From: Acidimicrobiales bacterium
GTDB lineage: Bacteria > Actinomycetota > Acidimicrobiia > Acidimicrobiales > JACDCH01
Reading direction: 5' to 3'
Assembly: GCA_036493595.1 (NCBI GenBank)
Contig: DASXPN010000067.1
Coordinates: 4-64,003, forward strand
DNA: 64,000 nt
A model generated the notes under the pieces. The model searched no databases, had not been told where the DNA came from, and saw only the letters and a program-made list of their open reading frames with translations. Position 1 is the first letter of the stretch. Each line of letters starts with the position of its first letter. This document shows, in pieces, positions 11,914 through 27,482 of the stretch. Position numbers and translations under genes: made by a program.

Positions 11914-14019
11914 GTGTTCGAGCTGACCGACGAACAGCAGGCGCTCGACGAATCAGTGGCGCGGCTGCTGGCGAAGACGTCCTCGCCCGACCAGGTGCGG
12001 GAGGCGGAGCTCGATGGCTTCTCGCCGGCGGTCTGGCGTGGTCTGGTCGACATGGGTCTGCTCGACGCGGCCGCGTCGCGCGACGCCAGCCTGTCCGACC
12101 TCGCCGTCGTCACGATGAGGACGGGCGCACAGCTCGCCGTGGTGCCCATCGTCGAAGCGCTGGTGGCGGCGCGCGCCGCGGGTCCCACCGGCGACCACGC
12201 CAGACGAGTCGCGGTGTTCACGCCGCGGCCGGTGCAGGACGGAGTGGCGACGTTGGTCGCGGGCGGCACGGTTGCCGCCGAGATCGTCGCTTGCGTGGGC
12301 GACCGGGTCATCGTCGCGGGCGTCGAGGTCGTGCGCGCGCACGCGAGCTTGGGTTCCACCGCGTTGGCGAGTGTCCGGCTCGTGGATCCGACGCCGATCG
12401 GCCACGCCGATGCCGGACGCGTGCTCGACGAATGGCGCGTGCTCACCGCGGCCGCGCTCGCCGGCCTGGCCCGAGCCGCACTCGACCTCGGTGTCGCGTA
12501 CGTGAAAGAGCGCCACCAGTTCGGCGTCCCGATCGGTTCGTTCCAGTCCATCCAACACCGGCTCGCCGACCTGTACACCGCGGTGGACGGCGCCCGCCTG
12601 TTCGCCCTCGAAGCCGCGGCCGCGCTCGACGACGGCGACGACGGCGGTGACGGACCCGCGCTGGCGGCGATGGCGCTCGACTGGTGCGGCCAGGTGGCCG
12701 AGGCCGCCGCCGCCGCCAGCCTGCACTTCCACGGTGGCTACGGGTTCATGCTCGAGTACGACGTCCAGCTGTACGTCCGCCGCGCCAAGGCATGGCGGCT
12801 CGCACTCGGCGATCCGCGGCGGCAGCGGCTCGAGACCGCCCGCCGGCTGTGGGGCAACGGCCGCAGCGGTCTACACCGACCACTCGATTCCTCGACCGAA
12901 TCGTTTCGCGCCGAGGTCCGTGCATTCCTCGGCGAACATCTCGACGACGAGATCCTCGAGCGTGCCCACGACACCGGCACCATGCACGACGCCCGGTTGC
13001 ATCGTGCGATTGCCGCTCGCGGATACCTCGCCGCGGGATGGCCCGAGGAGGTCGGCGGCCAGGGCCGCAGTGCCGTCGAGATGACCGCGCTGATGCAAGA
13101 GCTCTACGGGGCCGGCGCGCCCGTCGACAGCATGAGCATCGCGTCGATGGTCGCGGCCACGCTCTTGCTGCGGGGCACCGATCAGCAGCGCGGCGAGATC
13201 GTGCCGCGCATCCTGGCCGGCGATGCTCTGTGCTGCCTCGGCTACAGCGAGCCCGACGCCGGGTCCGACGTCGCCGCAGTGAAGACCCGCGCGGTGCGCG
13301 ACGGCGACGAGTGGGTGATCAACGGGCAGAAGATGTTCACGACCATGGCGCACGTCGCCGACTACGTGTTCCTGCTGACCCGCACGAGCCCCGAGAAACC
13401 GAAGCACAAGGGGCTGACGATGTTTCTCGTGCCGATGGATGCCGCCGGAATCGAGATCGCACCTGTCCACACCCTCGGCGGCGAGCGCACCAACATCACC
13501 TTCTACGCCGACGTGCGCGTTCCCGACTCGTGCCGGGTCGGTGACATGGACGCAGGTTGGTCGGTCATGCACGCGGCGCTCGTGTACGAGCGCAACAGCG
13601 CGAACTGGGGCGAGCCCGATCGCCTGGTGCGAGAAGTCGCGGCCTGGGCGACGTCGACCGGCGCGATCGACGATCCGCTGGTGGCCGAACGGCTCGCGGA
13701 GCACGCCACGGCGATGGAGGTCGGGCGGCTACTCCTCTACCGCATGGCGCAGGCCGCCGCGTCAGGCGCGATGACCGCGGTCGAGGGTTCGATGGCCAAG
13801 CTGTTCATCACCGAAGCGTTCACGCGCGCCGCGACCGACTTGCTCGACGTGCTCGGGGCTGCCGGCGTGCTGCCGCACGGCGACGACGACGCGCCGAATG
13901 CTGGGCTCGTCGAGCACGCCTTCCGGCACTCGACGGTGACCACCATCTACGGCGGGTCGAGCGAGGTGCAGCGCGGCATCATCGCCGAGCGCGGCCTCGG
14001 CCTCCCCCGCACGCGCTGA
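11914..14019 (+). CDS. Fused two-module acyl-CoA dehydrogenase (beta-like N-half, alpha-like C-half)
   Basis: 701 aa. The N-half resembles the short ACAD at 45154-46023 (LGVAYVKERHQFGVPIGSFQSIQHRLADL; HGGYGFMLEYDVQLYVRRAKAW). The C-half resembles the full ACAD at 46020-47156 (CLGYSEPDAGSDVAAVKTRAVRDGDEWVINGQKMFTT; TIYGGSSEVQRGIIAERGLGLPR). Confidence 0.8.
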   Translation: MFELTDEQQALDESVARLLAKTSSPDQVREAELDGFSPAVWRGLVDMGLLDAAASRDASLSDLAVVTMRTGAQLAVVPIVEALVAARAAGPTGDHARRVAVFTPRPVQDGVATLVAGGTVAAEIVACVGDRVIVAGVEVVRAHASLGSTALASVRLVDPTPIGHADAGRVLDEWRVLTAAALAGLARAALDLGVAYVKERHQFGVPIGSFQSIQHRLADLYTAVDGARLFALEAAAALDDGDDGGDGPALAAMALDWCGQVAEAAAAASLHFHGGYGFMLEYDVQLYVRRAKAWRLALGDPRRQRLETARRLWGNGRSGLHRPLDSSTESFRAEVRAFLGEHLDDEILERAHDTGTMHDARLHRAIAARGYLAAGWPEEVGGQGRSAVEMTALMQELYGAGAPVDSMSIASMVAATLLLRGTDQQRGEIVPRILAGDALCCLGYSEPDAGSDVAAVKTRAVRDGDEWVINGQKMFTTMAHVADYVFLLTRTSPEKPKHKGLTMFLVPMDAAGIEIAPVHTLGGERTNITFYADVRVPDSCRVGDMDAGWSVMHAALVYERNSANWGEPDRLVREVAAWATSTGAIDDPLVAERLAEHATAMEVGRLLLYRMAQAAASGAMTAVEGSMAKLFITEAFTRAATDLLDVLGAAGVLPHGDDDAPNAGLVEHAFRHSTVTTIYGGSSEVQRGIIAERGLGLPRTR

Positions 14020-14058: not shown

Positions 14059-14970
14059 CTAGTAGCGGAGGCCGGGCGCCCGCGTCTTGAAGATGTCGGT
14101 GGCGAGTTGCTGGCCGAGCTTCGTGGCGTCCCAGCGCTTGCCCCCGTTGTTGATGGTGGCGCCGTCGGTCCATCCGTCCATCAGGATGATGTTCTCGGCG
14201 ACCGCCCGTAGTACTTGCCCCGTGACCATCTGGCTCTCGTCGCTCGCCAGCCACGCGACCACAGGTGACGCCACGGCAGGATCCATCGGGTTCCACTCGT
14301 CGTCGGCGACGTCGTCGGTCTCGATGACGGCCGGCGCATTCGGCATGGTGCCGGTGATGCGGGTGGCGGCGGCCGGACCGATCGCGTTGACCGTCACGCC
14401 CATGCGGTAGAGCTCGAGCGACAGCGTCTGCGTCAGGCCGGCGATCGCCGCCTTCGCCGTGGCGTAGTTGGTCTGGCCGAAGTTCCCGACGAGCCCCGCG
14501 CCCGAGACCGTGTTGATGACCCGGCCGGTGAACGCCTCGCCGGCCTTCGACCGGTTGCGCCAGTGGTTGGCCGCGTGATGACACGGCAGCCACGTCCCCC
14601 GCACGTGCACGCGCATGACCGCATCGAAGTCCGTCACCGACATGTTCCAGATCACGCCGTCGCGCACGATGCCGGCGTTGTTGACGAGCACGTCGAGCTG
14701 GCCCCACGTGTCGACGGCCTGCTGGACCATCTCGGCCGACTGCGTCTCGTCGGACACGTCGCCATAGTTGGCGACCGCCGTGCCACCGCGCTGCTCGATC
14801 AGCTTCACCGTCACGTCGGCGTCCTGACTCGCCCCCTCACCACTGACCGAGCCACCGAGGTCGTTGACGACGACCCGCGCCCCTTGCTTCGCCAGCTCGA
14901 GCGCGTGCCCGCGCCCGATGCCGTGTCCCGCGCCGGTGACGATCGCGACCTTGCCGTCCAACAGTCCCAT
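14059..14970 (-). CDS. SDR oxidoreductase (MFE-2/Hsd4A-type hydroxyacyl-CoA dehydrogenase-like)
   Basis: KVAIVTGAGHGIGRGHALELAKQGARVVVNDLG, VLVNNAGIVRD, YATAKAAIAGL. ATG at 14970 preceded by GGAGAA. Confidence 0.8.
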   Translation of the reverse strand: MGLLDGKVAIVTGAGHGIGRGHALELAKQGARVVVNDLGGSVSGEGASQDADVTVKLIEQRGGTAVANYGDVSDETQSAEMVQQAVDTWGQLDVLVNNAGIVRDGVIWNMSVTDFDAVMRVHVRGTWLPCHHAANHWRNRSKAGEAFTGRVINTVSGAGLVGNFGQTNYATAKAAIAGLTQTLSLELYRMGVTVNAIGPAAATRITGTMPNAPAVIETDDVADDEWNPMDPAVASPVVAWLASDESQMVTGQVLRAVAENIILMDGWTDGATINNGGKRWDATKLGQQLATDIFKTRAPGLRY

Positions 14971-14980
14971 CAAGCTTTCT

Positions 14981-15001
14981 CCGTTTTCCGTTTTCCGTTT
15001 T
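14981..15001. repeat. Three perfect tandem CCGTTTT heptamers (GGAAAAC on the coding strand of the SDR), plus one degenerate unit
   Basis: Read directly: ccgttttccgttttccgtttt followed by cccgttc. Lies between REP copy A and the SDR RBS. Confidence 0.9.
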
Positions 15002-15004
15002 CCC

Positions 15005-15054
15005 GTTCTCCGGGTCTATTGCGGGGCCATAGCCCCGCAATAGCGCCAACATTC
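15005..15054 (-). repeat. REP-like palindromic element, copy A
   Basis: The reverse complement reads GAATGTTGGCGCTATTGCGGGGCTATGGCCCCGCAATAGACCCGGAGAAC. It ends 2 nt from the P450 stop codon. Confidence 0.85.
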
Positions 15055-15056
15055 GG

Positions 15057-16262
15057 TCAGTGGGGGGTGAACTTCACAGGCATCGAATTGATGCCGCGGA
15101 TGAAGGCGGACGGTGTGCGGTGCACCGACGCGCCGGGCGCGAGCTCGATGTCCGGCAGCCGGCGTAGGAGCTCTTCGTACATGACTCGCAGCTCGAGCCG
15201 GGCCAGCGACGCGCCGAGGCAGAAGTGGGTGCCGAAGCCGAAGGCGATGTGCGGGTTCGGATCGCGCCGCACGTCGAACTCGTCGGCGGTCGGACCGAAC
15301 ACGTCCGCATCGCGATTCGCCGACCCGTACAGCAGCAACAACTTCTCCCCCGCCGCGACACGCACACCCGCCACTTCGGTATCGGTCGTGGCGGTGCGCT
15401 GGAAGTTCACGATCGGCGTGACCCACCGCAACATCTCCTCGATCGCGACCGGCAGCCGTGACGAATCCTCGACCAACGACTGCCGTTGCGCCGGGTTCGC
15501 CATCAACGCTTCCATCCCGCCCGAGATCACGTTGCGGGTCGTCTCGTTGCCGCCGACGAGGATCAGCAGCAGCTCATTGATCAAGTTGTCGAGCGTGAAC
15601 GCGTGGCGCTCGCCGTCGTCGTCGACGATCTCGGCGTGGGTGAGGATCGACGTGAGGTCGTCACGCGGGTTGGCCCGACGATCTTCGATGACCTCGGTGA
15701 TGTACGAACAGAAATCGGTGAACTGGGCGATGATGTCGTCGGTCACCTTGCCGTCGGCACCCTTGATGAGCTCGTCCGACCACGCCTGGAGCCGGTCGCG
15801 GTCCTCGACCTTCACGCCGAGCATCTCCGCGATCACGATCATCGGCAACGGCACTGCGATGTCCTGGGTGAAGTCGCAGTGTCCGAGCGGCGCAACCGCG
15901 TCGAGGATCTCGGTGACGACGGCGCGGCAGTGGGCCTCCATGCCGGCGACCTGCTTCGGCGTGAACCCCTTGTAGACGAGCCGGCGTTGGCGGGTGTGGC
16001 GCGGGTCGTCCTGGGAGATCATCGAACCGTCCGGCGCGGTCTTCGGCCGGAACCCTTCGCCCGAACAGAACAGGTCGGGATGGCGGGACACGTACACGAC
16101 GTCGGCGTGACGGCTGATGCCCCACAACTCGTTGGCGTCGTCGCGATACACCGGCGCCTTGTCACGCAGCCACGCGTACGTCGGATACGGATCGCCCGCG
16201 TACAGGTCGCCGTCGAGCAGGTCGATCACGCGCTCGTCGGTCACTGACGTCGTCGTGCTCAT
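15057..16262 (-). CDS. Cytochrome P450
   Basis: Heme loop FGFGTHFCLGASLARLE and I-helix LLILVGGNETTRN. ATG at 16262 overlaps the upstream stop (ATGA). Confidence 0.9.
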   Translation of the reverse strand: MSTTTSVTDERVIDLLDGDLYAGDPYPTYAWLRDKAPVYRDDANELWGISRHADVVYVSRHPDLFCSGEGFRPKTAPDGSMISQDDPRHTRQRRLVYKGFTPKQVAGMEAHCRAVVTEILDAVAPLGHCDFTQDIAVPLPMIVIAEMLGVKVEDRDRLQAWSDELIKGADGKVTDDIIAQFTDFCSYITEVIEDRRANPRDDLTSILTHAEIVDDDGERHAFTLDNLINELLLILVGGNETTRNVISGGMEALMANPAQRQSLVEDSSRLPVAIEEMLRWVTPIVNFQRTATTDTEVAGVRVAAGEKLLLLYGSANRDADVFGPTADEFDVRRDPNPHIAFGFGTHFCLGASLARLELRVMYEELLRRLPDIELAPGASVHRTPSAFIRGINSMPVKFTPH

Positions 16263-17806
16263 GGCTTCGCGTACCGGTCGCGCAGCTCGAACTTGACGAT
16301 CTTGCCGGTCGGATTGCGCGGCAGCGCATCGACGATCTCGACTTGCTCGGGCAGCTTCTGCTTCATCAGACCGCGCTCGAGCAGGTACGCACACAGCTCG
16401 TCGAGAGACGGCGCGTCGCTCGGATCTGCAGCCACGACGACGGCGCACGCCCGTTCACCGGTGCGCTCGTCCGGCAGTCCGATGACCGCGACATCGGCGA
16501 CCTTCGGATGGGTGAACAGGTTGTCCTCCAACTCCTTGGCGGAGATGTTCTCCATGTTGCGGATGATGATGTCCTTGACCCGACCCGTGATCCGGACGTT
16601 GCCCCGCTCGTCGATGACCGCGAGGTCGCCCGTACGGAAGTAGCCACTCTCGTCGAATGCATCCGCATCGAGCGTCGAGTCGACGTAGCCCCGCATGAGC
16701 ATCGGCGCCTGGAGACGGATCTCGCCCTCTTCACCTGGCGCGGTCCGCGACCCGTCGACCTTCACCGTGACGAGGTCGACGCCGCTCACGGGCGCACCCT
16801 CGGTGTTGGCGAGATCCTCGTCGGTGTCGCGCACCGAGGCCATCGTGACGATCGGCGCCTCGGTCATGCCGTAGCCCGACACCACGCCGACTCCGCCGAG
16901 CTCGTCCTTGACGTCGTAGTGCAGCTGCGGTGGTTTCGGCGCACCCCCACCGATGAAGGCGCGCGCCTCGGGGAACAACGGCGCCGACTCGGGGTGGTTG
17001 CGTTGGTACGCGAGGTACGCCATGTGGAACGGCGTGCCCGCCCCCGCCAGCGTGACGCCGTTGCGGGCGAGCGTCGGTGGCGTCTGCTCTGCGTCGAAGC
17101 CCTCGTTGACGAGCATCGTGCAGCCGAACGCAAGCGCGCTGAACACGTACACCGCGCCGGCGACGTGGGTGAAGGGGAACACGCAGCCGATGCGGTCGCG
17201 CTCGGTGACCTCCAATCGCTCGCACATGCCGACCGCGGCCGCCTTGATGGTCGCGTCCGTGTGCTGCGCGCCCTTCGGATCCGCCGTCGTACCGGACGTG
17301 TAGTAGTACCAGCGCACCGGAAGGTCGGCGGGATCGTCGGGCGTCTCCGGTGGCGCGGGCAGCAGCTGCGGATCACCCTGGGGCAGCGCCCGGTTGGCAA
17401 CGAGCACGTCAAGGCCGGGTTGGCCGGCCGCGATCTCCTTGGCCATCTCCTCGTAATCGAAGTTTCGCCACGCACCTGGAACCACCAGCAGCCGCGACCC
17501 CGCCTGCTTCGTGATGAAGCCGACCTCACGCTGGCGGTAGATCGGCAGCATCGGGTTCTGCACGGCTCCGAGCCGTGACAGCGCGGACACGAGTGCGAGT
17601 GACTCGAGCCACGTCGGCAGCTGCCACGACACCACGTCGCCCAAGCCGATGCCGAGGCGGGCGAGTCCGGCGGCGGTGCGTTCCGCCTCGGCCCGATACT
17701 CGGCGAACGTCATGGTGCGGTCGCTTTCGTCGATGGCCATGACTGCGTCCGGCGAGGCATCGACGCGTTTGTCGAGCAGCTCCCAGAGCGTGCGGCCGTC
17801 GATCAT
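16259..17806 (-). CDS. AMP-dependent acyl-CoA ligase (FadD-like)
   Basis: YYYTSGTTADPKGAQH AMP-binding motif, GYGMTE, TGDLAVIDERGNVRITGRVKD. ATG at 17806 preceded by GGAGGA. Confidence 0.85.
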   Translation of the reverse strand: MIDGRTLWELLDKRVDASPDAVMAIDESDRTMTFAEYRAEAERTAAGLARLGIGLGDVVSWQLPTWLESLALVSALSRLGAVQNPMLPIYRQREVGFITKQAGSRLLVVPGAWRNFDYEEMAKEIAAGQPGLDVLVANRALPQGDPQLLPAPPETPDDPADLPVRWYYYTSGTTADPKGAQHTDATIKAAAVGMCERLEVTERDRIGCVFPFTHVAGAVYVFSALAFGCTMLVNEGFDAEQTPPTLARNGVTLAGAGTPFHMAYLAYQRNHPESAPLFPEARAFIGGGAPKPPQLHYDVKDELGGVGVVSGYGMTEAPIVTMASVRDTDEDLANTEGAPVSGVDLVTVKVDGSRTAPGEEGEIRLQAPMLMRGYVDSTLDADAFDESGYFRTGDLAVIDERGNVRITGRVKDIIIRNMENISAKELEDNLFTHPKVADVAVIGLPDERTGERACAVVVAADPSDAPSLDELCAYLLERGLMKQKLPEQVEIVDALPRNPTGKIVKFELRDRYAKP

Positions 17807-17834
17807 GAACTGATCCTCCAGTGCTGTCCTGGCA

Positions 17835-18461
17835 CTAGGCCGGGTTGTCCAGACCGGCCATTGCACGGAAGTCCGCCGTCGTGTTCGCGTGCGGGAACGG
17901 CTCGTCGGGCACGGCCAGGCCGAGCGCCTTGCAGATCGGCTCCCAGCCGTCGCTCGGCTTCCACTCCACGAGACGGGCCGGATCAGCGTTGGCGCGGACA
18001 TCGGCGTTGTGTCGCTCGTAGGCCGCGATGGCCTCGCCCTTGTCACCGACATTCGCCGTGAACCGGTGGCGGAAGATCGCATCGACCATCGCCACCCATT
18101 CGGCCGGCATGTCCTGTGGCCCTCGATCCATGACCGCGAAGATCGTCTCGCTCGCGCTCTTCCACCACGCCTCGGAGCTCTCACGGGTCGACAACAGGAT
18201 GACCGCGTCCGGGTTCGCGTCGGCCATCTCCCTCCAGAACGAGCCGCCGGGCCAGTCGACGCATGCGACGAAGCCCTCGGGGAACGACGCGAAATCGACG
18301 GGTTCGTCTTCGGCCGCTCGCCGCCACACATCCACATCGTCGGGGCGCCCGAACACCTCGATCATGTGGTAACAGGGTCCGCCGAGCAGCTGCTCGAGCG
18401 CCATTTTCAGCGAGTTGGTCCCGGTACGCCCGAGTCCCGCGCCCACCACACGTAACGTCAC
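17835..18461 (-). CDS. Sulfotransferase-family protein (Sulfotransfer_4-like)
   Basis: GLGRTGTNSLKMALEQL PAPS 5'-phosphosulfate-binding-type loop, ILLSTRESSEAWWKS, YERHNADVR, WEPICKALGLAVPDEPFPHANT. GTG at 18461 overlaps the upstream stop (GTGA). Confidence 0.7.
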   Translation of the reverse strand: MTLRVVGAGLGRTGTNSLKMALEQLLGGPCYHMIEVFGRPDDVDVWRRAAEDEPVDFASFPEGFVACVDWPGGSFWREMADANPDAVILLSTRESSEAWWKSASETIFAVMDRGPQDMPAEWVAMVDAIFRHRFTANVGDKGEAIAAYERHNADVRANADPARLVEWKPSDGWEPICKALGLAVPDEPFPHANTTADFRAMAGLDNPA

Positions 18462-20038
18462 GCTTCGGCCTCCTTGATCGCGACTTCCTTGGCCCAGGCA
18501 TAGTCCGCCTTGCCGACCGGTGATCGTTGCACGGTCTCGACGGTGACGACGGCACGCGGGACCTTGTAGCCGGCGAGCTGGCCTCGGCAGTGCGCGACAA
18601 CCGTGTCACGATCGAGCGCGTGCCCGTCGGTCACCTGCACCACCGCAGTGACCCGCTCGCCCCAACGAGGATCGGGCACACCGACGACGATGACGTCGTA
18701 CACCGCCGGGTGACCGAGCAACACGCCCTCGACCTCTTCGGGGAAGACCTTCTCGCCGCCGGTGTTGATGCACATCGACCCACGGCCGAGCAACTGGATC
18801 GAACCGTCGTCGAGCACGGTCGCCACGTCGCCCGTGAGCACCCACCGCTCCCCGTCGCGCTCGACGAACGTCGCCGCCGTCTTCTCGGGATCGTTGTGGT
18901 ACCGCAGCGGGATGTGGCCGCGGCGGGCGACTCGTCCTTCTCCACCTGAGCCGGCAGTGACGATCTCGAGCGTCTCCGGATCGAGGACGAGGGTCTCGTC
19001 GTCGAAGCTGGCGAACTTGCCGCCGCCGAAGCTGCGCGCCTGCGCGCCGGTCTCCGACGCGCCGTAACCGTCGTTCAGGATGACGTGCGGGAAGGTGGTG
19101 GCGAGCTCTTCGCGTCCGGCGCTCGACAAAGGCGCGCCGCCGGAGCCGATGGAGATGAGTGAGGACGCGTCGTACTCGCCGGGTCGGGCCTTGTACTCGT
19201 CGATCAGGGGACGAGCAACGGCGTCGCCGATGATCGTCAGCACCTGCACCTTGTGCTCGCTGATGAGGCGCCAGACCTCTGCGTAGTCCGTGCGCGGCCT
19301 TGATGCAGTCAGCAGGTTCGTGCCGCCGCCCATGAGCCATGCAAACACCGTCCATTGCGCGGCGCCGTGCATCAACGGCGCCAACGGAAAGAACATGAAC
19401 GTGCCGCCGATGCGTTCGGGCATCTCGTCGGGCGTCTTGACGGGATTGGCGCGCGTGAAATCGCCACCACCGAAGCACGAGTAGAACGCGTCCTCCTGGC
19501 GCCACACGACACCCTTCGGCATGCCCGTCGTGCCGCCGGTGTAGATGATGTAGAAGTCGTCGCCACTGCGCTGCACCTCGACCCGCTCCGGCGACGACTC
19601 GGCCAACGCCTTTTCGTAGTCGGAGTCGGAGTCGCCGCTCACCGCGAGCGTGGTCGTCAGCAACGGCAAGCCGTCGCGTACGGCTTCGATGCGAGGCGTG
19701 AACTCCGCGTCGTGCACGAGCGCCTTGAGGTCGGCGTCACGGAACAGGTACCGCAGCTCGTCCTCGACATAGCGGTAGTTCACGTTGATGGGAACTGCGC
19801 GCAGCTTGAACGCCGCGTACATCGTCTCGACGTACTCGGTGCCGTTGAACATGTAGCAGCCGACGTGGTCGCCCGGCCCGATCCCCTTGCTCGCCAGCCA
19901 CGCCGCCAGCCGGTTGGCCCGCGCCTCGAGCTCTGCGTACGTGAGACTGCGGGCCGGCGTGATCAGAGCCGGCCGGTCGGGGACACGATCGACGGCAGCC
20001 TCGGTGAGGTCGGCCAGGTTGAACGTCAACACGGGCAT
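18458..20038 (-). CDS. AMP-dependent acyl-CoA ligase (FadD-like)
   Basis: IIYTGGTTGMPKGVVW, GYGASETG, TGDVATVLDDGSIQLLGRGS. ATG at 20038, 4 nt after the upstream stop. Confidence 0.85.
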   Translation of the reverse strand: MPVLTFNLADLTEAAVDRVPDRPALITPARSLTYAELEARANRLAAWLASKGIGPGDHVGCYMFNGTEYVETMYAAFKLRAVPINVNYRYVEDELRYLFRDADLKALVHDAEFTPRIEAVRDGLPLLTTTLAVSGDSDSDYEKALAESSPERVEVQRSGDDFYIIYTGGTTGMPKGVVWRQEDAFYSCFGGGDFTRANPVKTPDEMPERIGGTFMFFPLAPLMHGAAQWTVFAWLMGGGTNLLTASRPRTDYAEVWRLISEHKVQVLTIIGDAVARPLIDEYKARPGEYDASSLISIGSGGAPLSSAGREELATTFPHVILNDGYGASETGAQARSFGGGKFASFDDETLVLDPETLEIVTAGSGGEGRVARRGHIPLRYHNDPEKTAATFVERDGERWVLTGDVATVLDDGSIQLLGRGSMCINTGGEKVFPEEVEGVLLGHPAVYDVIVVGVPDPRWGERVTAVVQVTDGHALDRDTVVAHCRGQLAGYKVPRAVVTVETVQRSPVGKADYAWAKEVAIKEAEA

Positions 20039-20042
20039 GGTT

Positions 20043-20975
20043 CTACTTGACCGCGACCGGGTTGACCGGCGAGCCGACCGCACCGGTGAAGGGCAGCGGC
20101 GACGCTTCGAGCAGGAAGTCGTACGTGCCGTCCTGGTCGCAGCCGGCCGCGAGCGCTTCGAGGTCGAAGTTCTGCCCTTGTGTCATCCCCATGTCACGAA
20201 GGTGCAGGAGATGGACCGGGAACAGCAGGTCCTCGCGCTCACCGGGGTAGACCTCGAACGCGACGGTGTCCGTCGCGACCGCGGCCACGTCGCGGTCGCG
20301 GAACCATGTCGCGGTCGCCATCGTGAGACCAGGCTGGTGACCGCCGGTGTAGGTCTGGCGATCACGCGCCTTGAAGAGCTGCATGTTGCCGGTGCGAACG
20401 AGCACCACATCACCCGGCTCGATGGTCAGCCGGGTGAGCGCGACAGCCGCATCCAAGTCGGCCGCCGTGATGCCGTAGCCGCCGTCGAGCCGCTCGCGAC
20501 CGAGAGCGCGAGCGACGTCGAGCAACACGCCTCTCGTGGTCAACGTCGTGATCCGCGAGATGCCGCACCGGGTCGCCCCCGCTTCCGCGGTCACAGCCGA
20601 CGCAGGGAAGCCGTTGTAGAGCCGGCCGCCATAGCTCACGTGGCTCAGCGCGTCCCAATGTGTCGCCGCCTGCAGGCCCATGGTGACGATGTCGTCGCTC
20701 GTGCAGAAGCCGTCCGCCGAACCCTGATACTCCGCGTTCACCGCGACCATCGCGTGCAGCGGGTTGATGCGCCCCGGTATCGACCCGATCTGCGGGCTGT
20801 GCTGGTCGAACCGCACCGCGAGTGAGAACCGCTCGCCCGTTCGCACGGCAGCGGCGCCCCGCCGCACCGCGTCCGCGTCGATCAGGTTGAGCGTGCCGAT
20901 CTCGTCGTCGTCGCCCCACCGTCCCCAGTTCGAGACCCGCGCCGCGAGCTCGAGAAAATCGCCGGGCAGTGTCAC
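20043..20975 (-). CDS. Cyclase-family protein (kynurenine formamidase-like fold)
   Basis: GLQAATHWDALSHV metal motif, GVLLDVAR, EPGDVVLVRTG. GTG at 20975 overlaps the upstream stop (GTGA). Confidence 0.65.
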   Translation of the reverse strand: MTLPGDFLELAARVSNWGRWGDDDEIGTLNLIDADAVRRGAAAVRTGERFSLAVRFDQHSPQIGSIPGRINPLHAMVAVNAEYQGSADGFCTSDDIVTMGLQAATHWDALSHVSYGGRLYNGFPASAVTAEAGATRCGISRITTLTTRGVLLDVARALGRERLDGGYGITAADLDAAVALTRLTIEPGDVVLVRTGNMQLFKARDRQTYTGGHQPGLTMATATWFRDRDVAAVATDTVAFEVYPGEREDLLFPVHLLHLRDMGMTQGQNFDLEALAAGCDQDGTYDFLLEASPLPFTGAVGSPVNPVAVK

Positions 20976-22096
20976 GCGCCCGCGGCGGCCTCGCGGTAGC
21001 GAGTGGTGGAGTGCACCGGATCCTTGTCGAACTGCGGCAGCACCTCCTTGCCGAACAGCTCCATCGACGCGACGACCACATCGGTCGACAGGGTGTTGGT
21101 GGTGGGGCTGAACGTCAACTGGTCGACGCCGATGTCGGCCCACCGCTGAATCGCCTTGGCGCAGTCATCCGGATCGCCGACCACCGCGTAACCGGCCGCG
21201 GTCGCCTTCTCGATCTGGCCGGGCGTCGGCTCGGGCAGGATCTCGGGCCACTTGGGGAAACCGTCGGGCGTCGGGATGTTGTCGAGCCAATGGTGCATGA
21301 GGCTCGTGTAGTAGTTCATCTTCATGTCGGCCGCGGCGCGGAACGCCTCGTTGCGGTCCTCCATGCACACGAGGTTGGTCACCGCCATGATGTTGTCGTT
21401 GACGTAGTCGCCGACCGGCGTCGCGTTCTCGATGGCGTTCTTGTAGTTCTTCACCAGCGGCTCGATCTCGCGCGGCGAGCCTTCGGAGAAGCAGAACGCG
21501 CCGAGTCCGAGCGATCCCGCCTCACCGAACGTCGGGGGCGAGCCGGCTGCGACCCACATCGCAGGGTGCGCGGGACCATGCGGCTTCGGGAACACTTCGC
21601 GCTCGGGCATGCGGAAGAACTTGCCCTCGTAGCTGTACGTGCCCGCCTTCCACATCTTCGGGATCTCGGTGATCGTCTCGCGCCACATCTCCTTGGTCAG
21701 GGAGAGATCCTCGATGCCGAACCCGAACACCTCGGTCGTCGACGAACCGCGCCCGGTGCCGAACTCGAAGCGGTTGTCGAGGAGGTGATCCATCAACGCC
21801 ACCGTCTCCGCGACGCGAGCGGGCTTGTTGACCGGCGGCGTGATGTTGAAGATCGCCGAGCCGAGATGGATGCGCTCCGTCTGTGCGCCAACGTAGGACA
21901 GGAACACCTCGGGGCCTGGCATGTGCGAGTACTCGTCGAGGAAGTGATGCTCCGGGCACCACACGTACTTCAAGCCGTTGCGCTCGGCCGCGAGCGATAT
22001 CTCGACGTTGCGCATGATGCGCTTGTGCTCCGCCGCGGGATCGACGTCGCGCTCGAATCGAGGCACGAACAACTGGGCGAAGATGCCGAACTCCAT
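20972..22096 (-). CDS. LLM-class flavin-dependent oxidoreductase (luciferase-like monooxygenase)
   Basis: MEFGIFAQLFVP..YVWCPEHHFLDEYSHMPGPEVFLSYVGAQTERIHLGSAI..FEFGTGRG. ATG at 22096 preceded by AGGAGA. Confidence 0.85.
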   Translation of the reverse strand: MEFGIFAQLFVPRFERDVDPAAEHKRIMRNVEISLAAERNGLKYVWCPEHHFLDEYSHMPGPEVFLSYVGAQTERIHLGSAIFNITPPVNKPARVAETVALMDHLLDNRFEFGTGRGSSTTEVFGFGIEDLSLTKEMWRETITEIPKMWKAGTYSYEGKFFRMPEREVFPKPHGPAHPAMWVAAGSPPTFGEAGSLGLGAFCFSEGSPREIEPLVKNYKNAIENATPVGDYVNDNIMAVTNLVCMEDRNEAFRAAADMKMNYYTSLMHHWLDNIPTPDGFPKWPEILPEPTPGQIEKATAAGYAVVGDPDDCAKAIQRWADIGVDQLTFSPTTNTLSTDVVVASMELFGKEVLPQFDKDPVHSTTRYREAAAGA

Positions 22097-22110
22097 GGAC
22101 TCGCTGTCTC

Positions 22111-23187
22111 CTAGGTGAGGTTCACGTCGAGCACGCCGCGGTTGAGCTTGCCGGCGTGCATGTCGTCGAGGGCCTGGCCGATGTCGCCGAGCGGGTAGCG
22201 CTGGCTCACCATCTCGTCGAGCTGCAAGCGTCCGTCCTGGTAGAAGCGGACGAGCAGCGGGATGTCGTGGTGCGGGCGCGTCGAGCCGTAGCGGCAGCCC
22301 AGGATCGACTTGTCGTTGTAGAGCGTGTTGACCACGAAACTTGCTTCGGTGCCGAGCTTCGGGACCCCGAGCAACGTGCAGGTGCCGCCCCAGTCGAGCA
22401 GATCGACGGCATTGCGGATGAGCGCGGGATGGCCGACGCACTCGAAGACGTGGTCGACGCCGTTCGGCAGGCCGAGATCCTTCACCGCCGCGACCAGATC
22501 GCCGACCGCGGTGCCGTCGATGAAGTCAGACGCCCCGAACTGGCGGGCCACGGCTTCCTTCGCGGGGTTGGCGTCGACAACCACGATGCGGCCGCTGGCG
22601 GCGATGCGCGCCGCCTGGATGACGGACTGGCCGATGCCGCCGGCGCCGATGACGACGACGGTCTGCCCTGGTTGCACCTTCGCCCGGTTGAGCACCGCGC
22701 CCGTACCGGTGACGACCGCGCAACCGATGAGACACGCCACTTCCAGTGGGACGTCCTTGTCGATGACAATCGCTTGGGTCTCGTTCACCACGGTGTGCTC
22801 GCTGAACACGCCCGCGTTGGCGAACTGGAACGCCTTCTCACCGCCGACCGTGAACGGGCGTGGCAGGCGACCGAACGTGTCGCGGCAGTGCGTCGGCTGG
22901 CCGCGGTCGCACGCATCGCACTGGCCGCAGTTGCCGAGCGTCGTGAGCACGACGTGGTCGCCGACCGCGACCTTGCGTACCGCGCTGCCGACCTCTTCGA
23001 CGACACCCGCGCCCTCGTGTCCCATCACGACCGGCGTCGGGAACGGGATGGTGCCGTCGATCACCGACACGTCGCTGTGACACAGGCCGGCGTTGACGAT
23101 ACGGACCTTCACCTCGTGCGGCTGCGGCGCCCGCACCTCGACGTCGTCTCGAACCTCGAGCGCGCCCGTCCAGACGATGGCCTTCAT
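22111..23187 (-). CDS. Zn-dependent alcohol dehydrogenase (MDR family)
   Basis: GLCHSDVSV, GHEGAGVVEEVG, GNCGQCDACDRG structural-zinc loop, VVVIGAGGIGQS Rossmann motif. ATG overlaps the upstream stop (ATGA). Confidence 0.9.
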   Translation of the reverse strand: MKAIVWTGALEVRDDVEVRAPQPHEVKVRIVNAGLCHSDVSVIDGTIPFPTPVVMGHEGAGVVEEVGSAVRKVAVGDHVVLTTLGNCGQCDACDRGQPTHCRDTFGRLPRPFTVGGEKAFQFANAGVFSEHTVVNETQAIVIDKDVPLEVACLIGCAVVTGTGAVLNRAKVQPGQTVVVIGAGGIGQSVIQAARIAASGRIVVVDANPAKEAVARQFGASDFIDGTAVGDLVAAVKDLGLPNGVDHVFECVGHPALIRNAVDLLDWGGTCTLLGVPKLGTEASFVVNTLYNDKSILGCRYGSTRPHHDIPLLVRFYQDGRLQLDEMVSQRYPLGDIGQALDDMHAGKLNRGVLDVNLT

Positions 23188-24950
23188 GACGCGGCCGTCG
23201 CCGCGGTGGTCGCCGCGGTGTTCGGACGGAGGACGTGACCCGGCAGGCCGGCGTCTTGTTGCAACTCGCCTTCGAGCACGATCGGCACGCCATTGACGAC
23301 GGTGGCGTGGGCGCCGTCGGGCTTGGACGTCCAGCGTCCCGCGCCGTTCGGGAAGTCGTGGACGAACTCCTTGTGCGCGGGGCCGATCGTGTCGGGGTCG
23401 AACACGTAGACGTCCGCCGCGTAGCCGGGCAGCAGCAGACCTCGATCGATGATGCCGCACAGCGCGGCGGGTATCGCAGTGATCTGGCGCACGCCTTCTT
23501 CGAGGGTGAACCCGTCCCACTCGCGCACCCAATGCTTGAGGAAGTAGCTGTGTGCCTCGGCGCCGTCGTCACGATCAAGGTGGGCGCCGCCGTCACTCGT
23601 GCCCACGAGCATGTGCGGATCGGCCTGCGCGACCCGGGTGCCGTCGATCCACTCCTGCGTCTCGGTGCGCCACAAGAACTCGGTCGTGAGGTCTTCGGAC
23701 AGCGCGATGTCGAGCATCGCGTCGGTGGGATGGACGCCGAGCTCGCTCGCAATGTCGGTGACCGAACGGCCGGCGTACTTCTCGTTCTCGGGACGGGAGA
23801 CCTTGTTGACGTGCAGCACGTCCCAGTGCGGCGGCGGCAGCGTCACCCCCTTCGCCGGATCACGGTTCGGGTCCTCGACGGAAAAGCGGATCGCGTCACG
23901 GAAGCTCGGATCGCGCAGCAACGCGATGCGGGCGTCGACGGTGGCTGCGTCGGTGAACATGCGATGGAACTCGAGCGCACCCTCGTACATGGTCGTGCCG
24001 GCCGCGAGGGTGAAGGTGCGGTTGAACGGCTTCGACATGGCGAGCGAGTAGACCGCCGCGCCCTGATCGGTGGCCTCGTCGACGAAGCGCTTCGCGTTGT
24101 CCCATCCCGCGGTGGGCGCGTCGACCTTCGAGCGTGCGCCCAAACCTTGGATGACCACCGGCAGGCGCGAGGCGAGCGACATCCGCACGAGCAGTGCTTC
24201 GTCGTCAGGCGTGATGCCACCCACTGCCGACAGCGGCAGGTAGGCGATCGACCCGCCGCGACCCGCCCGGCCGGCCGCGGCGGCGAGGCGCTCGAGTTCG
24301 GCGGTGGACGCCAGCCGGCTCGGCACCGGACGGTTGGCGGAGTCGAAGTGCGTCGGCGAATGCGTGGACGAGAAGCCGGCCGCGCCGGCATCCATCGCGT
24401 CGGCGACGATGGCCGCCATCGCGTCGATCTCGTCACCGGTCGCCTCGCGCTCTTGGCACGCGTCGCCCATCACGTACCGCCGGACGGCGCAGTGGCCCAC
24501 GTAGAACGCGGCGTTGATGCCGATGCGGCCGTCGAGCGTGCGCAGGTACTCGGGGAACGTCTCGAAGCCCTCGAAGGGGATGCCACTCAACGCCGACGCA
24601 TCCATCCCCTCGACGCGGGCGAACAGCTGGATCAACCAGTCGCTGTCGCCCGGCCGCAGCGGCGCAACCGAAAAGCCGCAGTTGCCGGCGACGACCGTCG
24701 TCACGCCGTGGAAGCAACTCGACGTCGCGTACGGCTCGAACGTGAGCTGCGGGTCGTAGTGCGTGTGCGGGTCGACGATGCCCGGTGCGACCACTCGACC
24801 GTCGGCGTCGATCTCTCGGACGCCCGTGCCGTCGACGAAGCCGACCTCGGCGATGCGACCGCCACTGACCGCCACGTCGGCCCGCCGCCGCGGTAGGCCG
24901 GTGCCGTCGACGACGACGCCGTTGCGGATCACCAGGTCGTAGGCGGCCAC
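23184..24950 (-). CDS. N-acyl-D-amino-acid deacylase-family amidohydrolase
   Basis: DLVIRNGVVVDGTG..ADVAVSGGRIAEVG..VVAPGIVDPHTHYD. 588 aa. GTG start at 24950. Confidence 0.8.
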   Translation of the reverse strand: MAAYDLVIRNGVVVDGTGLPRRRADVAVSGGRIAEVGFVDGTGVREIDADGRVVAPGIVDPHTHYDPQLTFEPYATSSCFHGVTTVVAGNCGFSVAPLRPGDSDWLIQLFARVEGMDASALSGIPFEGFETFPEYLRTLDGRIGINAAFYVGHCAVRRYVMGDACQEREATGDEIDAMAAIVADAMDAGAAGFSSTHSPTHFDSANRPVPSRLASTAELERLAAAAGRAGRGGSIAYLPLSAVGGITPDDEALLVRMSLASRLPVVIQGLGARSKVDAPTAGWDNAKRFVDEATDQGAAVYSLAMSKPFNRTFTLAAGTTMYEGALEFHRMFTDAATVDARIALLRDPSFRDAIRFSVEDPNRDPAKGVTLPPPHWDVLHVNKVSRPENEKYAGRSVTDIASELGVHPTDAMLDIALSEDLTTEFLWRTETQEWIDGTRVAQADPHMLVGTSDGGAHLDRDDGAEAHSYFLKHWVREWDGFTLEEGVRQITAIPAALCGIIDRGLLLPGYAADVYVFDPDTIGPAHKEFVHDFPNGAGRWTSKPDGAHATVVNGVPIVLEGELQQDAGLPGHVLRPNTAATTAATAAS

Positions 24951-24960: not shown

Positions 24961-24978
24961 ACTAGAACACGTTCTAGT
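24961..24978. promoter_or_regulatory. KstR-type operator box 1 (ACTAGAAC-AC-GTTCTAGT)
   Basis: Perfect 8+2+8 palindrome matching the mycobacterial KstR motif TnnAACnnGTTnnA. It sits in a 43-nt divergent intergenic region and overlaps TAGTCT / TAGTTT -10-like hexamers. Confidence 0.7.
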
Positions 24979-24993: not shown

Positions 24994-25857
24994 GTGACGG
25001 ACCGGGGAGGTGTGTACGTTCGCCGGATGGAAGCCGTCATCGCCCGCAAGATGTGGCGCACGCTCGAGCCCTACCACGGCCTCGTCTACTTCGCCCCCGA
25101 GGCGCGGGACGCGTATGCCTCGTTCGGCATCGAAGGAAGAGACGGGTACTTCGCGTCCCGGGCCGCGCCCATGGGCGCGGTCGAGCCGAGCACGGTCATC
25201 GCGACGTTCTTCAACTTCAACCCGGACCTCATCACGCACGCGTTGCCGGCGGCGTGGTCGAAGGCCTCTCCAACGCAGGTGTTGAAGGCGCGCTTCGACG
25301 GTGTGGATCAGGCGCTGCGACGGACGCTCGGTGATGCCATCGACTCGCCGTCGGTCAGCCGCGCCGCCGAACTGGCCCGCGCCGCGTCCGAAGGATGCGG
25401 CGGCGCAGGCCGTCCGCTCGCGGCCGCACACGCGTCGCTGCCGTGGCCGATGCAGCCCCATGTCGCGCTGTGGCACGCCATCTCGGTGCTCCGCGAGTTC
25501 CGCGGCGACGGACACATCGTCAGCCTCGTGGACGCGAACCTCGACCCGGTCGAGGCTCTCGTCTTCCACGCAGCGTCGGGCGAGGTCCCCCGAGCGGCAT
25601 TGCAGTCGACGCGAGCGTGGGACGACGACGCGTGGTCCGCCGCCGTACAACGGCTGCAGGCGCGCGGCCTCGTCGATGGCGACGGCTCCTTCACGGCGGA
25701 GGGAGCAGCGCTGCGCCAGTCGATCGAGGACCGAACCGACGTACTGGCGATGGCGCCTTGGGAGCACCTCGGCGAGGACGGCTGCGACGAGCTGCGGGCC
25801 CTCGTGCGCCCCCTGAGCAAGGCCGTGCTCGCCGGCACAGACTTTGAGTTTCGCTGA
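24994..25857 (+). CDS. Conserved hypothetical protein (helical, possibly winged-helix C-terminus)
   Basis: WRTLEPYHGLVYFAPEARDAYASFGI..GYFASRAAPMG pattern, common in actinobacterial hypotheticals. Start is either GTG 24994 or ATG 25027. Confidence 0.5.
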   Translation: MTDRGGVYVRRMEAVIARKMWRTLEPYHGLVYFAPEARDAYASFGIEGRDGYFASRAAPMGAVEPSTVIATFFNFNPDLITHALPAAWSKASPTQVLKARFDGVDQALRRTLGDAIDSPSVSRAAELARAASEGCGGAGRPLAAAHASLPWPMQPHVALWHAISVLREFRGDGHIVSLVDANLDPVEALVFHAASGEVPRAALQSTRAWDDDAWSAAVQRLQARGLVDGDGSFTAEGAALRQSIEDRTDVLAMAPWEHLGEDGCDELRALVRPLSKAVLAGTDFEFR

Positions 25858-25971: not shown

Positions 25972-27384
25972 TCAACCGGGCCAGACGATCGACTGGAGCT
26001 CGGAGTACGCGTGCAGCCCGAACGAGCCGCCGTCGCGGCCGACGCCCGAGAGCTTGAACCCACCGAACGGTGCCTCGTGGTTGCGTTGCGCGGTGTTGAT
26101 GCCGACGTTGCCGCTGCGCAGTTGCTTCGCGACGCGCATGGCGCGCGCGGTATCGGCGGAGAACACGTAGTCGTAGAGACCGAAGTCCGTACCGTTGGCG
26201 AGGGCGACGCCTTCGTCCTCGTCGTCGAACGGCACGACGACCACCACGGGACCGAAGATCTCTTCCTGCACGACCCTCATGCCGGCCTTGCAGTCGGCGA
26301 TCAGGGTCGGCGCGACGTAGAAGCCGCTCGCCATGTCCGGACGCTCGCCGCCGGCGACCACCGTGCCACCTTCGTCCGCACCCGATTGCACGTACGACTC
26401 GATGCGATCGCGATGCATCCCGGAGATCACGGGGCCGAGCACGGTGTCCTTCTCCAGCGGGTCGCCAACCTTCAGTGACCCGGCGGCGGCCTGCAATCCC
26501 GACACCAGCTTGTCGTACACGCCCCGTTGGGCGAGCACACGCGTTGGCGCGGTGCAGATCTGACCCGAGTGGAACGCCCACACGCTCGCAATCGTCGCGA
26601 TCGCGCTGCGCACGTCGGCGTCGTCGAACACGACCGCCGCCCCCTTGCCGCCGAGCTCGAGCAGGAGACGCTTCATGTCGTGCCCCGCGACCGCGCCGAT
26701 GCGCTGACCCACCACGGTCGAGCCCGTGAAGCTGATCATGTCGACGTGCTTCGACGAGACGAGTGCTTCACCCACCTCGGCGCCAGAGCCGGTCACAACA
26801 TTGACGACACCGGGAGGGAAACCGGCCGCCTCCAACAACTCGCACACACGGATCACCGCGAGCGGATCCTGCGGCGCCGGTTTCACGACCACTGTGTTGC
26901 CCATCGCCAGCGCGGGACCGATCTTTCCCGCCATGTTCACGATCGGGAAGTTGTACGGCGTGATGCAGGCGACCACACCGACCGGTTGACGAACCGCGAT
27001 GGCGCCCATCAACCCGCCGGAGGCGAGCGCGGTCGACGGCATCTCGCTCGGAGGCAGCGCGATCACCGAGGGCTCGACGGCGCCGCGCGCGTAACGCCGG
27101 AAACGCTCGACGCACGTCGGCACCTGCATCGTCTTCGCGACGCGCATCGTGGCGCCGGTCTCTGCTTGCACGAGCGGGATGAGCTCGTCCATGTGATCGC
27201 GGATGAGGTCGCCGGCTCGGTTCAACAAGTCCGCGCGGTCGGCGGGCGACGTTCGGCTCCACGCGGGCAACGCGGCTGCGGCCGCCGCGGCCGCCGCCTC
27301 GACCTCGTCGACCGATGCTTCCGACGCCTCGCCGACGATCTGCTCAGTGGCGGGGTTCACGATCGGGTAGGCGGCGGCACTCAT
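25972..27384 (-). CDS. NAD(P)-dependent aldehyde dehydrogenase
   Basis: FTGSTVVGQRI, ELGGKGAAVVFDDAD and a catalytic Cys context (HSGQICTAPTR). ATG at 27384. Confidence 0.9.
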   Translation of the reverse strand: MSAAAYPIVNPATEQIVGEASEASVDEVEAAAAAAAAALPAWSRTSPADRADLLNRAGDLIRDHMDELIPLVQAETGATMRVAKTMQVPTCVERFRRYARGAVEPSVIALPPSEMPSTALASGGLMGAIAVRQPVGVVACITPYNFPIVNMAGKIGPALAMGNTVVVKPAPQDPLAVIRVCELLEAAGFPPGVVNVVTGSGAEVGEALVSSKHVDMISFTGSTVVGQRIGAVAGHDMKRLLLELGGKGAAVVFDDADVRSAIATIASVWAFHSGQICTAPTRVLAQRGVYDKLVSGLQAAAGSLKVGDPLEKDTVLGPVISGMHRDRIESYVQSGADEGGTVVAGGERPDMASGFYVAPTLIADCKAGMRVVQEEIFGPVVVVVPFDDEDEGVALANGTDFGLYDYVFSADTARAMRVAKQLRSGNVGINTAQRNHEAPFGGFKLSGVGRDGGSFGLHAYSELQSIVWPG

Positions 27385-27393
27385 CGCGTCGAC

Positions 27394-27411: not shown

Positions 27412-27455
27412 GGCGCGGCCAGCAAGGGCGGCCGGCACGATCGCCGGCGCGAGGA

Positions 27456-27473: not shown

Positions 27474-27482
27474 CTGGCGACC

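Follow-up and report, generated by a model that had tools for sequence, protein, structure and literature searches.

A conserved, probably nine-gene unit behind a KstR-type operator, with a proposed role in sterol-type lipid catabolism, in an uncultured soil Acidimicrobiales bacterium

We analysed a 64,000-nucleotide stretch of the genome of an Acidimicrobiales bacterium (GenBank assembly GCA_036493595.1, contig DASXPN010000067.1, positions 4 to 64,003; hereafter the window), and within it a tightly packed series of minus-strand genes, named here g1 to g9, that stands behind a perfect KstR-type operator. The series probably constitutes a single polycistronic unit (14059-24950), and we think it rather likely that this unit, together with a co-regulated aldehyde dehydrogenase (ALDH) gene upstream of it, is an operon for the catabolism of sterol-type lipids. 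Steroid and sterol catabolism is best understood in the mycolic-acid actinobacteria and in a few proteobacteria; to our knowledge, the class of this host is not known for steroid degraders. A preliminary description of the locus had proposed lipid or steroid catabolism by a conserved, tightly packed unit under a KstR-type operator, and this general idea was supported by the results described below.

Results

A perfect KstR-type operator overlaps the putative promoter of the unit

A perfect copy of the 14-bp KstR palindrome, TAGAAC(N2)GTTCTA, is positioned at 24963-24976, 12 nt upstream of the GTG start codon of g1, so that the KstR-type box reported ahead of the operon was borne out. The palindrome corresponds to the consensus and to the site in the M. 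tuberculosis kstR promoter, which is bound by purified KstR (PMC1995591). The operator of the window, ACTAGAACGTGTTCTA, matches the M. tuberculosis kstR-promoter palindrome at every letter (PMC1995591), and the presence of its core, TnnAACnnGTTnnA, in the g1 promoter region marks the unit, by sequence, as a putative member of a KstR regulon. The window contains three perfect copies of the palindrome (24963-24976, 27396-27409 and 27458-27471), against 0.18 matches predicted for 64 kb from shuffled sequences at the two-mismatch tolerance of the box search. The strict motif is rare in the 1.86 Mb of loci that were fetched, with only about 10 occurrences, of which several immediately precede homologues of operon genes.

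The outer bases of the g1 operator make up a −10-like hexamer, TAGTCT, which is followed by 8 nt and then by the g1 GTG. DNA was available for six loci, the window, L002, L086, L161, L162 and L163, and none of them departs from an arrangement of operator (TAGAACGTGTTCTA), −10-like hexamer of the form TA(N)T(C/T)T and, after 8-10 nt, the start codon GTG of g1; the spacer, by contrast, varies in sequence. Over these six loci the operator thus holds its position across the presumed core promoter, as a phylogenetic footprint, and it probably overlaps the −10 region of a leaderless gene, the GTG of g1 being probably the first codon of a leaderless message. Because the operator, the hexamer and the spacing to the start are invariant in the six loci, we propose that a leaderless transcript is repressed by a KstR-like protein.

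The ALDH gene shows the same geometry of box, hexamer and start as g1. The two further boxes (27396-27409 and 27458-27471) lie between this gene and a divergent operon (region 27385-27482), and a box-bearing ALDH gene is located immediately upstream of g1 in L002, L161, L162 and L163. The divergent operon opposite ALDH encodes an Amidohydro_2 protein, an unknown gene product and a fusion of AAA_33 with a luciferase-like flavin monooxygenase (LLM) domain; the same four loci keep this arrangement of ALDH and divergent operon, and in them the distance between a box and the ALDH ATG is 7-10 nt. The operator region of g1 is shared with a divergent HTH_67/SCO6745-family gene (24994-25857; ratio of nonsynonymous to synonymous substitution rates, dN/dS, 0.26), possibly a second regulator, which is present in the window, L086 and L161 (there as two split gene calls) and absent in L002, L162, L163 and the P0005 and P0007 contigs.

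Gene order is conserved around a core, with two optional inserts

The full order of g1 to g8, followed by the downstream gene for a short-chain dehydrogenase/reductase (SDR), recurs in four soil contigs (L086, L161, L162 and the P0005 contig), so that the arrangement is conserved in relatives, and the lack of any such conservation, which the preliminary description had named as grounds for refutation, was not borne out. The ligase g5, used as a marker, is 81-86% identical across the four. L081, L082 and L084 contain parts of this arrangement, and the full nine-gene form was present in at least five separate assemblies. In comparison with L086, the operon genes show amino acid identities of 65-94% and all are under purifying selection (dN/dS 0.10-0.28). 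The most constrained is g3 (94% identity, dN/dS 0.10), g1 has a dN/dS of 0.15, and the least constrained is g6, with 65% identity as against 82-94% for its neighbours and a dN/dS of 0.28, the maximum in the operon. The best matches to g4 are from metagenome-assembled genomes of Acidimicrobiales/Acidimicrobiia.

Two presence/absence variants were found. The P0007 and P0008 contigs retain the sulfotransferase gene (g6) and lack the P450 gene (g8), and L002 and L163 lack both. Because these variants lack either the P450 or both proteins, we define the conserved core of the unit, from gene content, without g6 and g8: the ALDH gene upstream, then the genes for amidohydrolase, alcohol dehydrogenase, LLM, cyclase, ligase, ligase and SDR. 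By the same comparison, g6 and g8 are independent optional inserts. They sit exactly at gene junctions with start/stop overlaps, and the tight junctions are retained in L086, L162 and L163. The neighbours of g4 homologues were also tabulated in 80 fetched loci; the commonest was a Zn-dependent alcohol dehydrogenase (Zn-ADH; 34 of 80), followed by a g7-type ligase (22) and an ALDH (16), and a sulfotransferase gene was seen in none of the 80.

Streptomyces homologues of g4 (L007, L011, L012 and about 15 other loci; 55-59% identity) adjoin genes for a Zn-ADH, an MFE-2-type SDR, a split alpha/beta pair of acyl-CoA dehydrogenases (ACADs; CoA, coenzyme A) and a g7-type ligase, without KstR boxes. 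These loci suggest a wider, differently regulated form of the core module in cultured organisms, which could serve for genetics.

Packing of the unit

The features of the locus are listed in Table 1. Open reading frame (ORF) tables, Pfam and NCBIfam confirmed eight co-directional minus-strand genes, g1 to g8, of the families originally assigned to them. Of five 4-nt start/stop overlaps that had been counted, the four named ones are present, namely ATGA at 23184-23187 (g1/g2), GTGA at 20972-20975 (g3/g4), GTGA at 18458-18461 (g5/g6) and ATGA at 16259-16262 (g7/g8); the fifth is not, the remaining three junctions being gaps of 14 nt (g2/g3), 4 nt (g4/g5) and 28 nt (g6/g7). All junctions from g1 to g8 thus measure at most 28 nt, and the series has one conserved putative promoter, no internal box and no internal terminator, which lends indirect support to a single transcript. 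A scan of the window identified at least seven further 4-nt overlaps at other junctions. Because such overlaps are common elsewhere in the window, and thus routine in this genome, the stoichiometric co-production that had been deduced from the coupling is an over-reading. Megablast of the operon against plasmids returned only short ligase fragments, and the locus is therefore not a known plasmid cluster.

Table 1. Genes and sequence elements of the locus (window coordinates)
Feature	Position	Strand	Description	Support
g1	23184-24950	-	Amidohydro_3 metallohydrolase, D-aminoacylase type, 588 aa, GTG start	Pfam PF07969 1.6e-31
g2	22111-23187	-	Zn-dependent alcohol dehydrogenase, 358 aa	Pfam ADH_N + ADH_zinc_N
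g3	20972-22096	-	luciferase-like flavin monooxygenase (LLM), 374 aa	Pfam PF00296 6.5e-46
g4	20043-20975	-	cyclase-like (PF04199) metal-dependent hydrolase, 310 aa	Pfam
g5	18458-20038	-	predicted FadD19-type acyl-CoA synthetase (AMP-ligase), 526 aa	NCBIfam NF005863/PRK07798
g6	17835-18461	-	predicted Sulfotransfer_4 sulfotransferase, 208 aa	Pfam PF17784 4e-57
g7	16259-17806	-	second acyl-CoA/AMP ligase, 515 aa	Pfam
g8	15057-16262	-	CYP142-family P450, 401 aa	PDB matches to CYP142
g9	14059-14970	-	putative MFE-2/Hsd4A-type SDR, 303 aa	Pfam adh_short
ALDH	25972-27384	-	aldehyde dehydrogenase, 470 aa, upstream of g1	Pfam Aldedh 3e-156
KstR-type operator	24963-24976		TAGAACACGTTCTA, full palindrome ACTAGAACGTGTTCTAGT; in the 43-nt gap between g1 and the divergent HTH_67 gene	
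REP-type hairpin	15016-15043		12-bp stem, 4-nt loop, flanks GAATGTTGG and CCGGAG	z-score −4.1
HTH_67/SCO6745-family gene	24994-25857	+	divergent from g1	Pfam PF21863 4.5e-109, NCBIfam NF047719
Fused ACAD	11914-14019	+	convergent fused beta-alpha acyl-CoA dehydrogenase, 701 aa	Pfam
CoA-transferase	10677-11903		family III CoA-transferase, upstream of fused ACAD	

The unit most likely continues through the SDR gene

The operon had been thought to end at a copy of a repetitive extragenic palindromic (REP) element, which is doubtful for the following reasons. A same-strand SDR gene (g9) follows and is syntenic in every relative, lying directly downstream in all nine that were examined, and it has a Shine-Dalgarno sequence, GGAGAA, 7 nt before its ATG. 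In L162 and L163 the hairpin is missing, and the SDR gene starts 15-16 nt after the preceding gene. Because the SDR gene is downstream in every relative, with this short, hairpin-free gap in two of them, the unit most likely comprises nine genes, of which g9 is the last. The REP-type hairpin begins 13 nt after the g8 stop codon and has no U-tract. It belongs to a dispersed REP-like family with five copies in the window (15006-15054, 35880-35915, 36874-36945, 41757-41806 and 53257-53278), and a terminator scan gave nothing convincing. For these reasons, and because the hairpin is absent from L162 and L163, a role as the operon terminator is unlikely; the element is most likely a later REP insertion, which may modulate the transcript rather than end it. 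Members of the family share conserved flanks (GAATGTTGG ... CCGGAG) around a GC-rich hairpin, and the orthologous g8/g9 spacers of L081 (3474-3520), L084 (3441-3486) and L086 (13335-13381) keep the flanks, with stems that differ by compensatory changes.

Four proteins resemble the opening of a sterol side-chain pathway

Alignment of g8 with M. tuberculosis CYP142A1 (PDB 2XKR and 8A6W; E about 1e-100) covers 382 residues at 48% identity, and the protein contains the heme loop FGFGTHFCLG. With a full-length identity above the 40% that is customary as the threshold for a P450 family, and with the heme-thiolate loop in place, g8 is by sequence a homologue of the CYP142-family steroid C26-monooxygenases. 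Its PDB matches place it closest to CYP142, with about 341 bits as compared with about 254 bits for CYP124.

The ligase g5 scored 681 bits with NCBIfam model NF005863/PRK07798 (cut-off 543), which is named only 'acyl-CoA synthetase'; its homologues at 58-80% identity are named 3-oxocholest-4-en-26-oate--CoA ligase by the JGI and NCBI pipelines, and g5 looks like a FadD19-type ligase. The score of g9 with NCBIfam PRK07791 (330 bits) is below the 373-bit cut-off, giving a family-level call; together with its N-terminal motif, this makes g9 a putative MFE-2/Hsd4A-like SDR. The fused ACAD encoded convergently to g9 matches Tcur3483 (PDB 6WY9, 4e-77) and ChsE4-ChsE5 (PDB 4X28, 4e-71), and its C-terminal half corresponds to the alpha subunits of the heterotetrameric steroid ACADs ChsE4-ChsE5 and Tcur3481-3483. 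The gene is syntenic in relatives, in which the single-polypeptide fusion is kept at 605-701 residues. Thus the earlier view that the pathway could not be named no longer applies to g8, g5, the SDR and the ACAD, which resemble the opening of the sterol side-chain pathway; it still applies to the rest of the operon. The adjacent CoA-transferase was considered as an alpha-methylacyl-CoA racemase that would act after CYP142, and this was rejected, as its best PDB and NCBIfam matches are true CoA-transferases and include no racemase.

The cyclase-like protein is most likely an esterase, and other core enzymes are assigned by class

The g4 protein aligned over its full length (residues 10-310; 2.4e-62) with PDB 5IBZ, the structure of MGS0169. 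MGS0169 is a Mn-stimulated, metal-dependent carboxylesterase with a modified cyclase motif and is related to trans-dienelactone hydrolase (PMC5341072). Like MGS0169, g4 departs from the classical HxGTHxDxPxH motif in that the first His is replaced by Gln. The metal motif of g4, Q-x3-H-x-D-x3-H (QAATHWDALSH), matches the Q-x3-Q-x-D-x3-H of MGS0169 only in part, since g4 retains the second His (Q-H-D-H as compared with Q-Q-D-H). The enzyme is most likely an esterase or lactonase, as predicted from this relationship. Because its closest relative is a demonstrated carboxylesterase, an ester or lactone bond is indicated rather than an amide; of the amide or ester link that had been envisaged for a hydrolase of the cyclase/formamidase fold, only the ester (or lactone) is retained.

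The g1 protein has intact metal motifs, including the HxH motif PGIVDPHTHYD and the GNCG cysteine, and matches the D-aminoacylase of PDB 1M7J (9e-40). The nearest NCBIfam model to g2 is TIGR03989, whose cut-off is not reached. The best PDB matches of g3 are LuxA-like proteins of the flavin mononucleotide (FMN) type (8CBB and 7BIP, about 1e-20), and its PDB matches at E values up to 1e-5 include no known structure of a Baeyer-Villiger monooxygenase (BVMO). For this reason we did not classify g3 as a type II BVMO and file it only as an LLM-class flavin oxygenase. The nearest NCBIfam model to g7 is that of cyclohexanecarboxylate-CoA ligase (341 bits, the cut-off being 792), and its PDB matches are FadD13 and aryl-AMP (adenosine monophosphate) ligases.

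The sulfotransferase is an optional member of the unit

The match of g6 to PF17784 covers the whole profile (1-215 of 215), and g6 also matches PDB 9KF1 (9e-43); the GAGxGRTGTxSLK loop and the LSTR and ERHNAxVR motifs are invariant in eight homologues. A full-length Sulfotransfer_4 domain with a conserved phosphosulfate-binding loop identifies g6, by family, as a predicted sulfotransferase dependent on 3′-phosphoadenosine 5′-phosphosulfate (PAPS). The literature on SgdX2 and PDB 9KF1, the nearest solved sulfotransferases to g6, provided nothing usable.

The suggestion that the substrate itself is sulfated found no indication in its favour, because a sulfotransferase adds sulfate and because g6, as an optional insert, is absent from L002 and L163. 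Cholesterol 3-O-sulfonation has a bacterial precedent in BtSULT of Bacteroides thetaiotaomicron (PMC13449962), and CYP142 enzymes bind and oxidise cholesteryl sulfate (PMC9425443, PMC6273163). By analogy, g6 may sulfate a sterol hydroxyl, in a step that is dispensable in the relatives. The resemblance to these systems lies in a sulfotransferase encoded near a CYP142 homologue; in two related operons g6 occurs without the P450. An obligate pair in which the P450 hydroxylates and the sulfotransferase then sulfates, as with cyp128/stf3, was rejected, since the P0007 and P0008 operons have the sulfotransferase and no P450.

Discussion

The results are best accommodated by a scheme that takes gene content, conservation, purifying selection and the operator footprint as observed, and in which co-transcription, the identity of the repressor, the substrate and every catalytic step are what we propose. 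A KstR-like TetR repressor, presumably encoded outside the window, would keep the unit off until a sterol-derived ligand appears; the promoter, of which the KstR-type operator overlaps the −10 region, would then give rise to a leaderless mRNA of the unit. Judging by homology, the P450 g8 would attack a sterol-type side chain at a terminal methyl, by hydroxylation or oxidation; alcohol and aldehyde intermediates would be converted to the acid by the Zn-ADH g2 and the ALDH encoded upstream; the FadD19-type ligase g5 would make the CoA thioester; and the convergent ChsE4-ChsE5-type ACAD and the MFE-2-type SDR g9 would begin beta-oxidation. In addition, g3, g4, g2, ALDH and g7 would together oxygenate the same substrate at a second site, hydrolyse an ester or lactone there, oxidise the product and activate it with CoA; candidates for this site are a keto group, a branch of the side chain or a substituent attached through an ester. 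This second-site chemistry is deduced from the enzyme classes and the neighbourhood, and such a sequence of oxygenation, hydrolysis, oxidation and activation would explain the presence of two ligases. The sulfotransferase and the P450 would be lineage-specific additions to the core, and the scheme assigns no step to the D-aminoacylase-type hydrolase g1.

Several observations weigh against a sterol-type substrate or against the unit as we describe it. Four related operons retain operator and core yet lack g8, the one enzyme that is steroid-specific, and the core may for that reason act on something other than a sterol. The FadD19 name carried by relatives of g5 was given by automated pipelines, and g1, g3 and g7 reach no curated NCBIfam cut-off. 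The 64-kb window contains no ring-opening genes (kshA, kstD, hsaA-D) and no gene recognised as encoding a KstR-like TetR protein, and the operon encodes neither a flavin reductase nor a ferredoxin partner. A sulfotransferase that consumes PAPS is odd in a purely catabolic unit. Finally, the operon sequence is present in four soil DNA sequencing runs, and none of the RNA runs contains it.

The absence of g8 from these relatives bears directly on the main alternative hypothesis, namely that the same architecture and the same type of repressor serve a bulky hydrophobic substrate that is not a sterol, such as methyl-branched or isoprenoid lipids, hopanoids, terpenoids, or alicyclic or subterminally oxidised alkyls. 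The core would then convert a ketone to an ester by a flavin reaction of the Baeyer-Villiger type, an esterase and ADH/ALDH would follow, two acyl-CoAs would result, and the P450 would be an added omega-hydroxylase. It is known that the CYP124/125/142 clade also oxidises methyl-branched lipids, and CYP124 is among the PDB matches of g8. That L002, L163 and the P0007 and P0008 contigs have kept core and operator while lacking the P450 fits this hypothesis, as do the cyclohexanecarboxylate-CoA ligase model nearest to g7, the Streptomyces homologues of g4 that stand with ADH, SDR, ACAD and ligase genes without KstR boxes, and the definition of the mycobacterial KstR regulon as a lipid-degradation regulon (PMC1995591). 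However, g8 is nearer to CYP142 (48% identity, about 341 bits) than to CYP124 (about 254 bits), the ACAD is nearest to the steroid-specific ChsE4-ChsE5 and Tcur3483, the relatives of g5 are named as cholestenoate ligases, and the operator is the exact kstR palindrome. We regard a non-sterol substrate as unlikely, though to be taken seriously.

One could also envision a more specific route for a sterol substrate. The sterol hydroxyl would first be sulfated by g6, yielding a soluble amphiphile that is still accepted by the CYP142-type P450; a keto or branched position would be opened by LLM oxygenation of the Baeyer-Villiger type and by the cyclase-fold esterase, and the two resulting acids would pass to the two CoA ligases, the sterols being probably those of plants or fungi. 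Baeyer-Villiger modules, in which a ketone is converted to an ester or lactone that is processed by an esterase, ADH/ALDH and a CoA ligase, operate in cyclohexanol and camphor degradation and in the cleavage of the steroid C17 side chain. The enzyme classes of the core match the logic of such modules and of subterminal oxidation (a flavin oxygenase, an ester/lactone hydrolase, ADH, ALDH and two ligases for two acids). The likeness is in logic only; the nearest solved relatives of g3 are LuxA-like proteins and not known type II BVMOs. We consider the route that starts with sulfation quite unlikely. If it is true, sulfation combined with a Baeyer-Villiger step would represent a new enzymatic logic of steroid catabolism under a KstR-type switch.

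The variants might instead mean that the unit is a patchwork, in which g6, g8 and the HTH_67 gene were acquired independently and joined to the core for unrelated reactions; there would be no single eight-step pathway, and the tight junctions would reflect nothing more than genome compaction. Consistent with this, there are three presence/absence variants among close relatives, in one relative (the P0008 contig) three additional genes interrupt the operon midway, 4-nt overlaps are frequent throughout the window, and g6 is the fastest-evolving gene (65% amino acid identity, as against 82-94% for its neighbours). Nevertheless, the inserts are placed at exact junctions with start/stop overlaps and are under purifying selection, at least five separate assemblies carry the complete set of nine, and one conserved promoter and operator is common to all parts, so that a mere patchwork seems very unlikely. 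The weakest candidate, a biosynthetic cluster for a sulfated, oxygenated lipid in which the ligases are activating enzymes, could point to the intact g6 with its conserved motifs and to a precedent for a P450 with a sulfotransferase in cyp128-stf3 of M. tuberculosis sulfomenaquinone synthesis (PMC6469627), but we rejected it as extremely improbable, because the operon and its vicinity contain no genes for a polyketide synthase, nonribosomal peptide synthetase, carrier protein, acyltransferase or exporter, the neighbouring genes are those of beta-oxidation, the KstR-type operator is a catabolic one, and two relatives (the P0007 and P0008 contigs) have the sulfotransferase but no P450.

Returning to the catabolism of a sterol-type lipid as the preferred reading, the closest known system is the KstR regulon of M. 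tuberculosis and M. smegmatis (PMC1995591), which includes fadD19 to cyp142 (Rv3515c-Rv3518c) and hsd4A/chsE4-chsE5. The two share the 14-bp operator, with its overlapping −10-like hexamer, and homologues of the CYP142-family P450, the FadD19-type ligase, the MFE-2-type dehydrogenase and the ChsE4-ChsE5-type ACAD are brought together here at one locus. They differ in that the host described here is an uncultured soil member of the Acidimicrobiales and not a mycolic-acid actinobacterium, that a single tight operon adds an Amidohydro_3 protein, a Zn-ADH, an FMN-type LLM, a cyclase-like esterase, a Sulfotransfer_4 protein and a second ligase, and that the ACAD is a single fused polypeptide. Full-text term searches of papers on actinobacterial steroid degraders yielded no cyclase, no LLM or luciferase, no sulfotransferase and no relevant amidohydrolase, and a term search of the KstR paper by Kendall and colleagues (PMC1995591) yielded no amidohydrolase. 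What is new is therefore the class of the host and the joining of KstR-type genes with enzyme families that the term searches of steroid-degrader papers did not turn up.

These findings suggest that the KstR operator, together with homologues of the CYP142, FadD19 and ChsE4/5 types, extends to abundant uncultured soil Acidimicrobiales. At this locus such genes are tied to five or six enzymes to which steroid pathways assign no role. If the substrate is indeed a sterol, then g1, g3, g4, g2, g7 and g6 are candidates for steps on esterified, keto or branched sterols, and the locus would give a physiological context to the orphan esterase family of MGS0169 (PDB 5IBZ, PMC5341072), which has no genomic pathway context of its own. 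The presence/absence variants of P450 and sulfotransferase amount to a natural experiment for the assignment of roles. Should the sterol hypothesis fail, the locus would still be a well-defined, conserved regulon unit for a hydrophobic substrate.

Three further observations concern the surroundings and the relatives of the unit. A second block of the window (44002-51543) encodes a thiolase (which passes the PRK07801 cut-off), split ACADs, a nitronate-monooxygenase-family protein, a CoA-transferase, an enoyl-CoA hydratase (which passes the PRK07938 cut-off) and a divergent SDR; we take this gene set to resemble the mycobacterial genes for the steroid C/D rings (the KstR2 regulon). In L161, the HTH_67, amidohydrolase, LLM and second ligase genes were called as truncated or split ORFs (3029-5755, 7154-7975 and 11535-12764), which are probably frameshift errors of long-read assembly and not real pseudogenes. 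The three-gene insertion of the P0008 contig lies between the cyclase and ligase genes, splitting the operon in two, and encodes an amine-oxidase-like flavoprotein, a 1104-residue protein with AAA_16 and guanylate-cyclase domains, and an MPAB_Lcp_cat protein.

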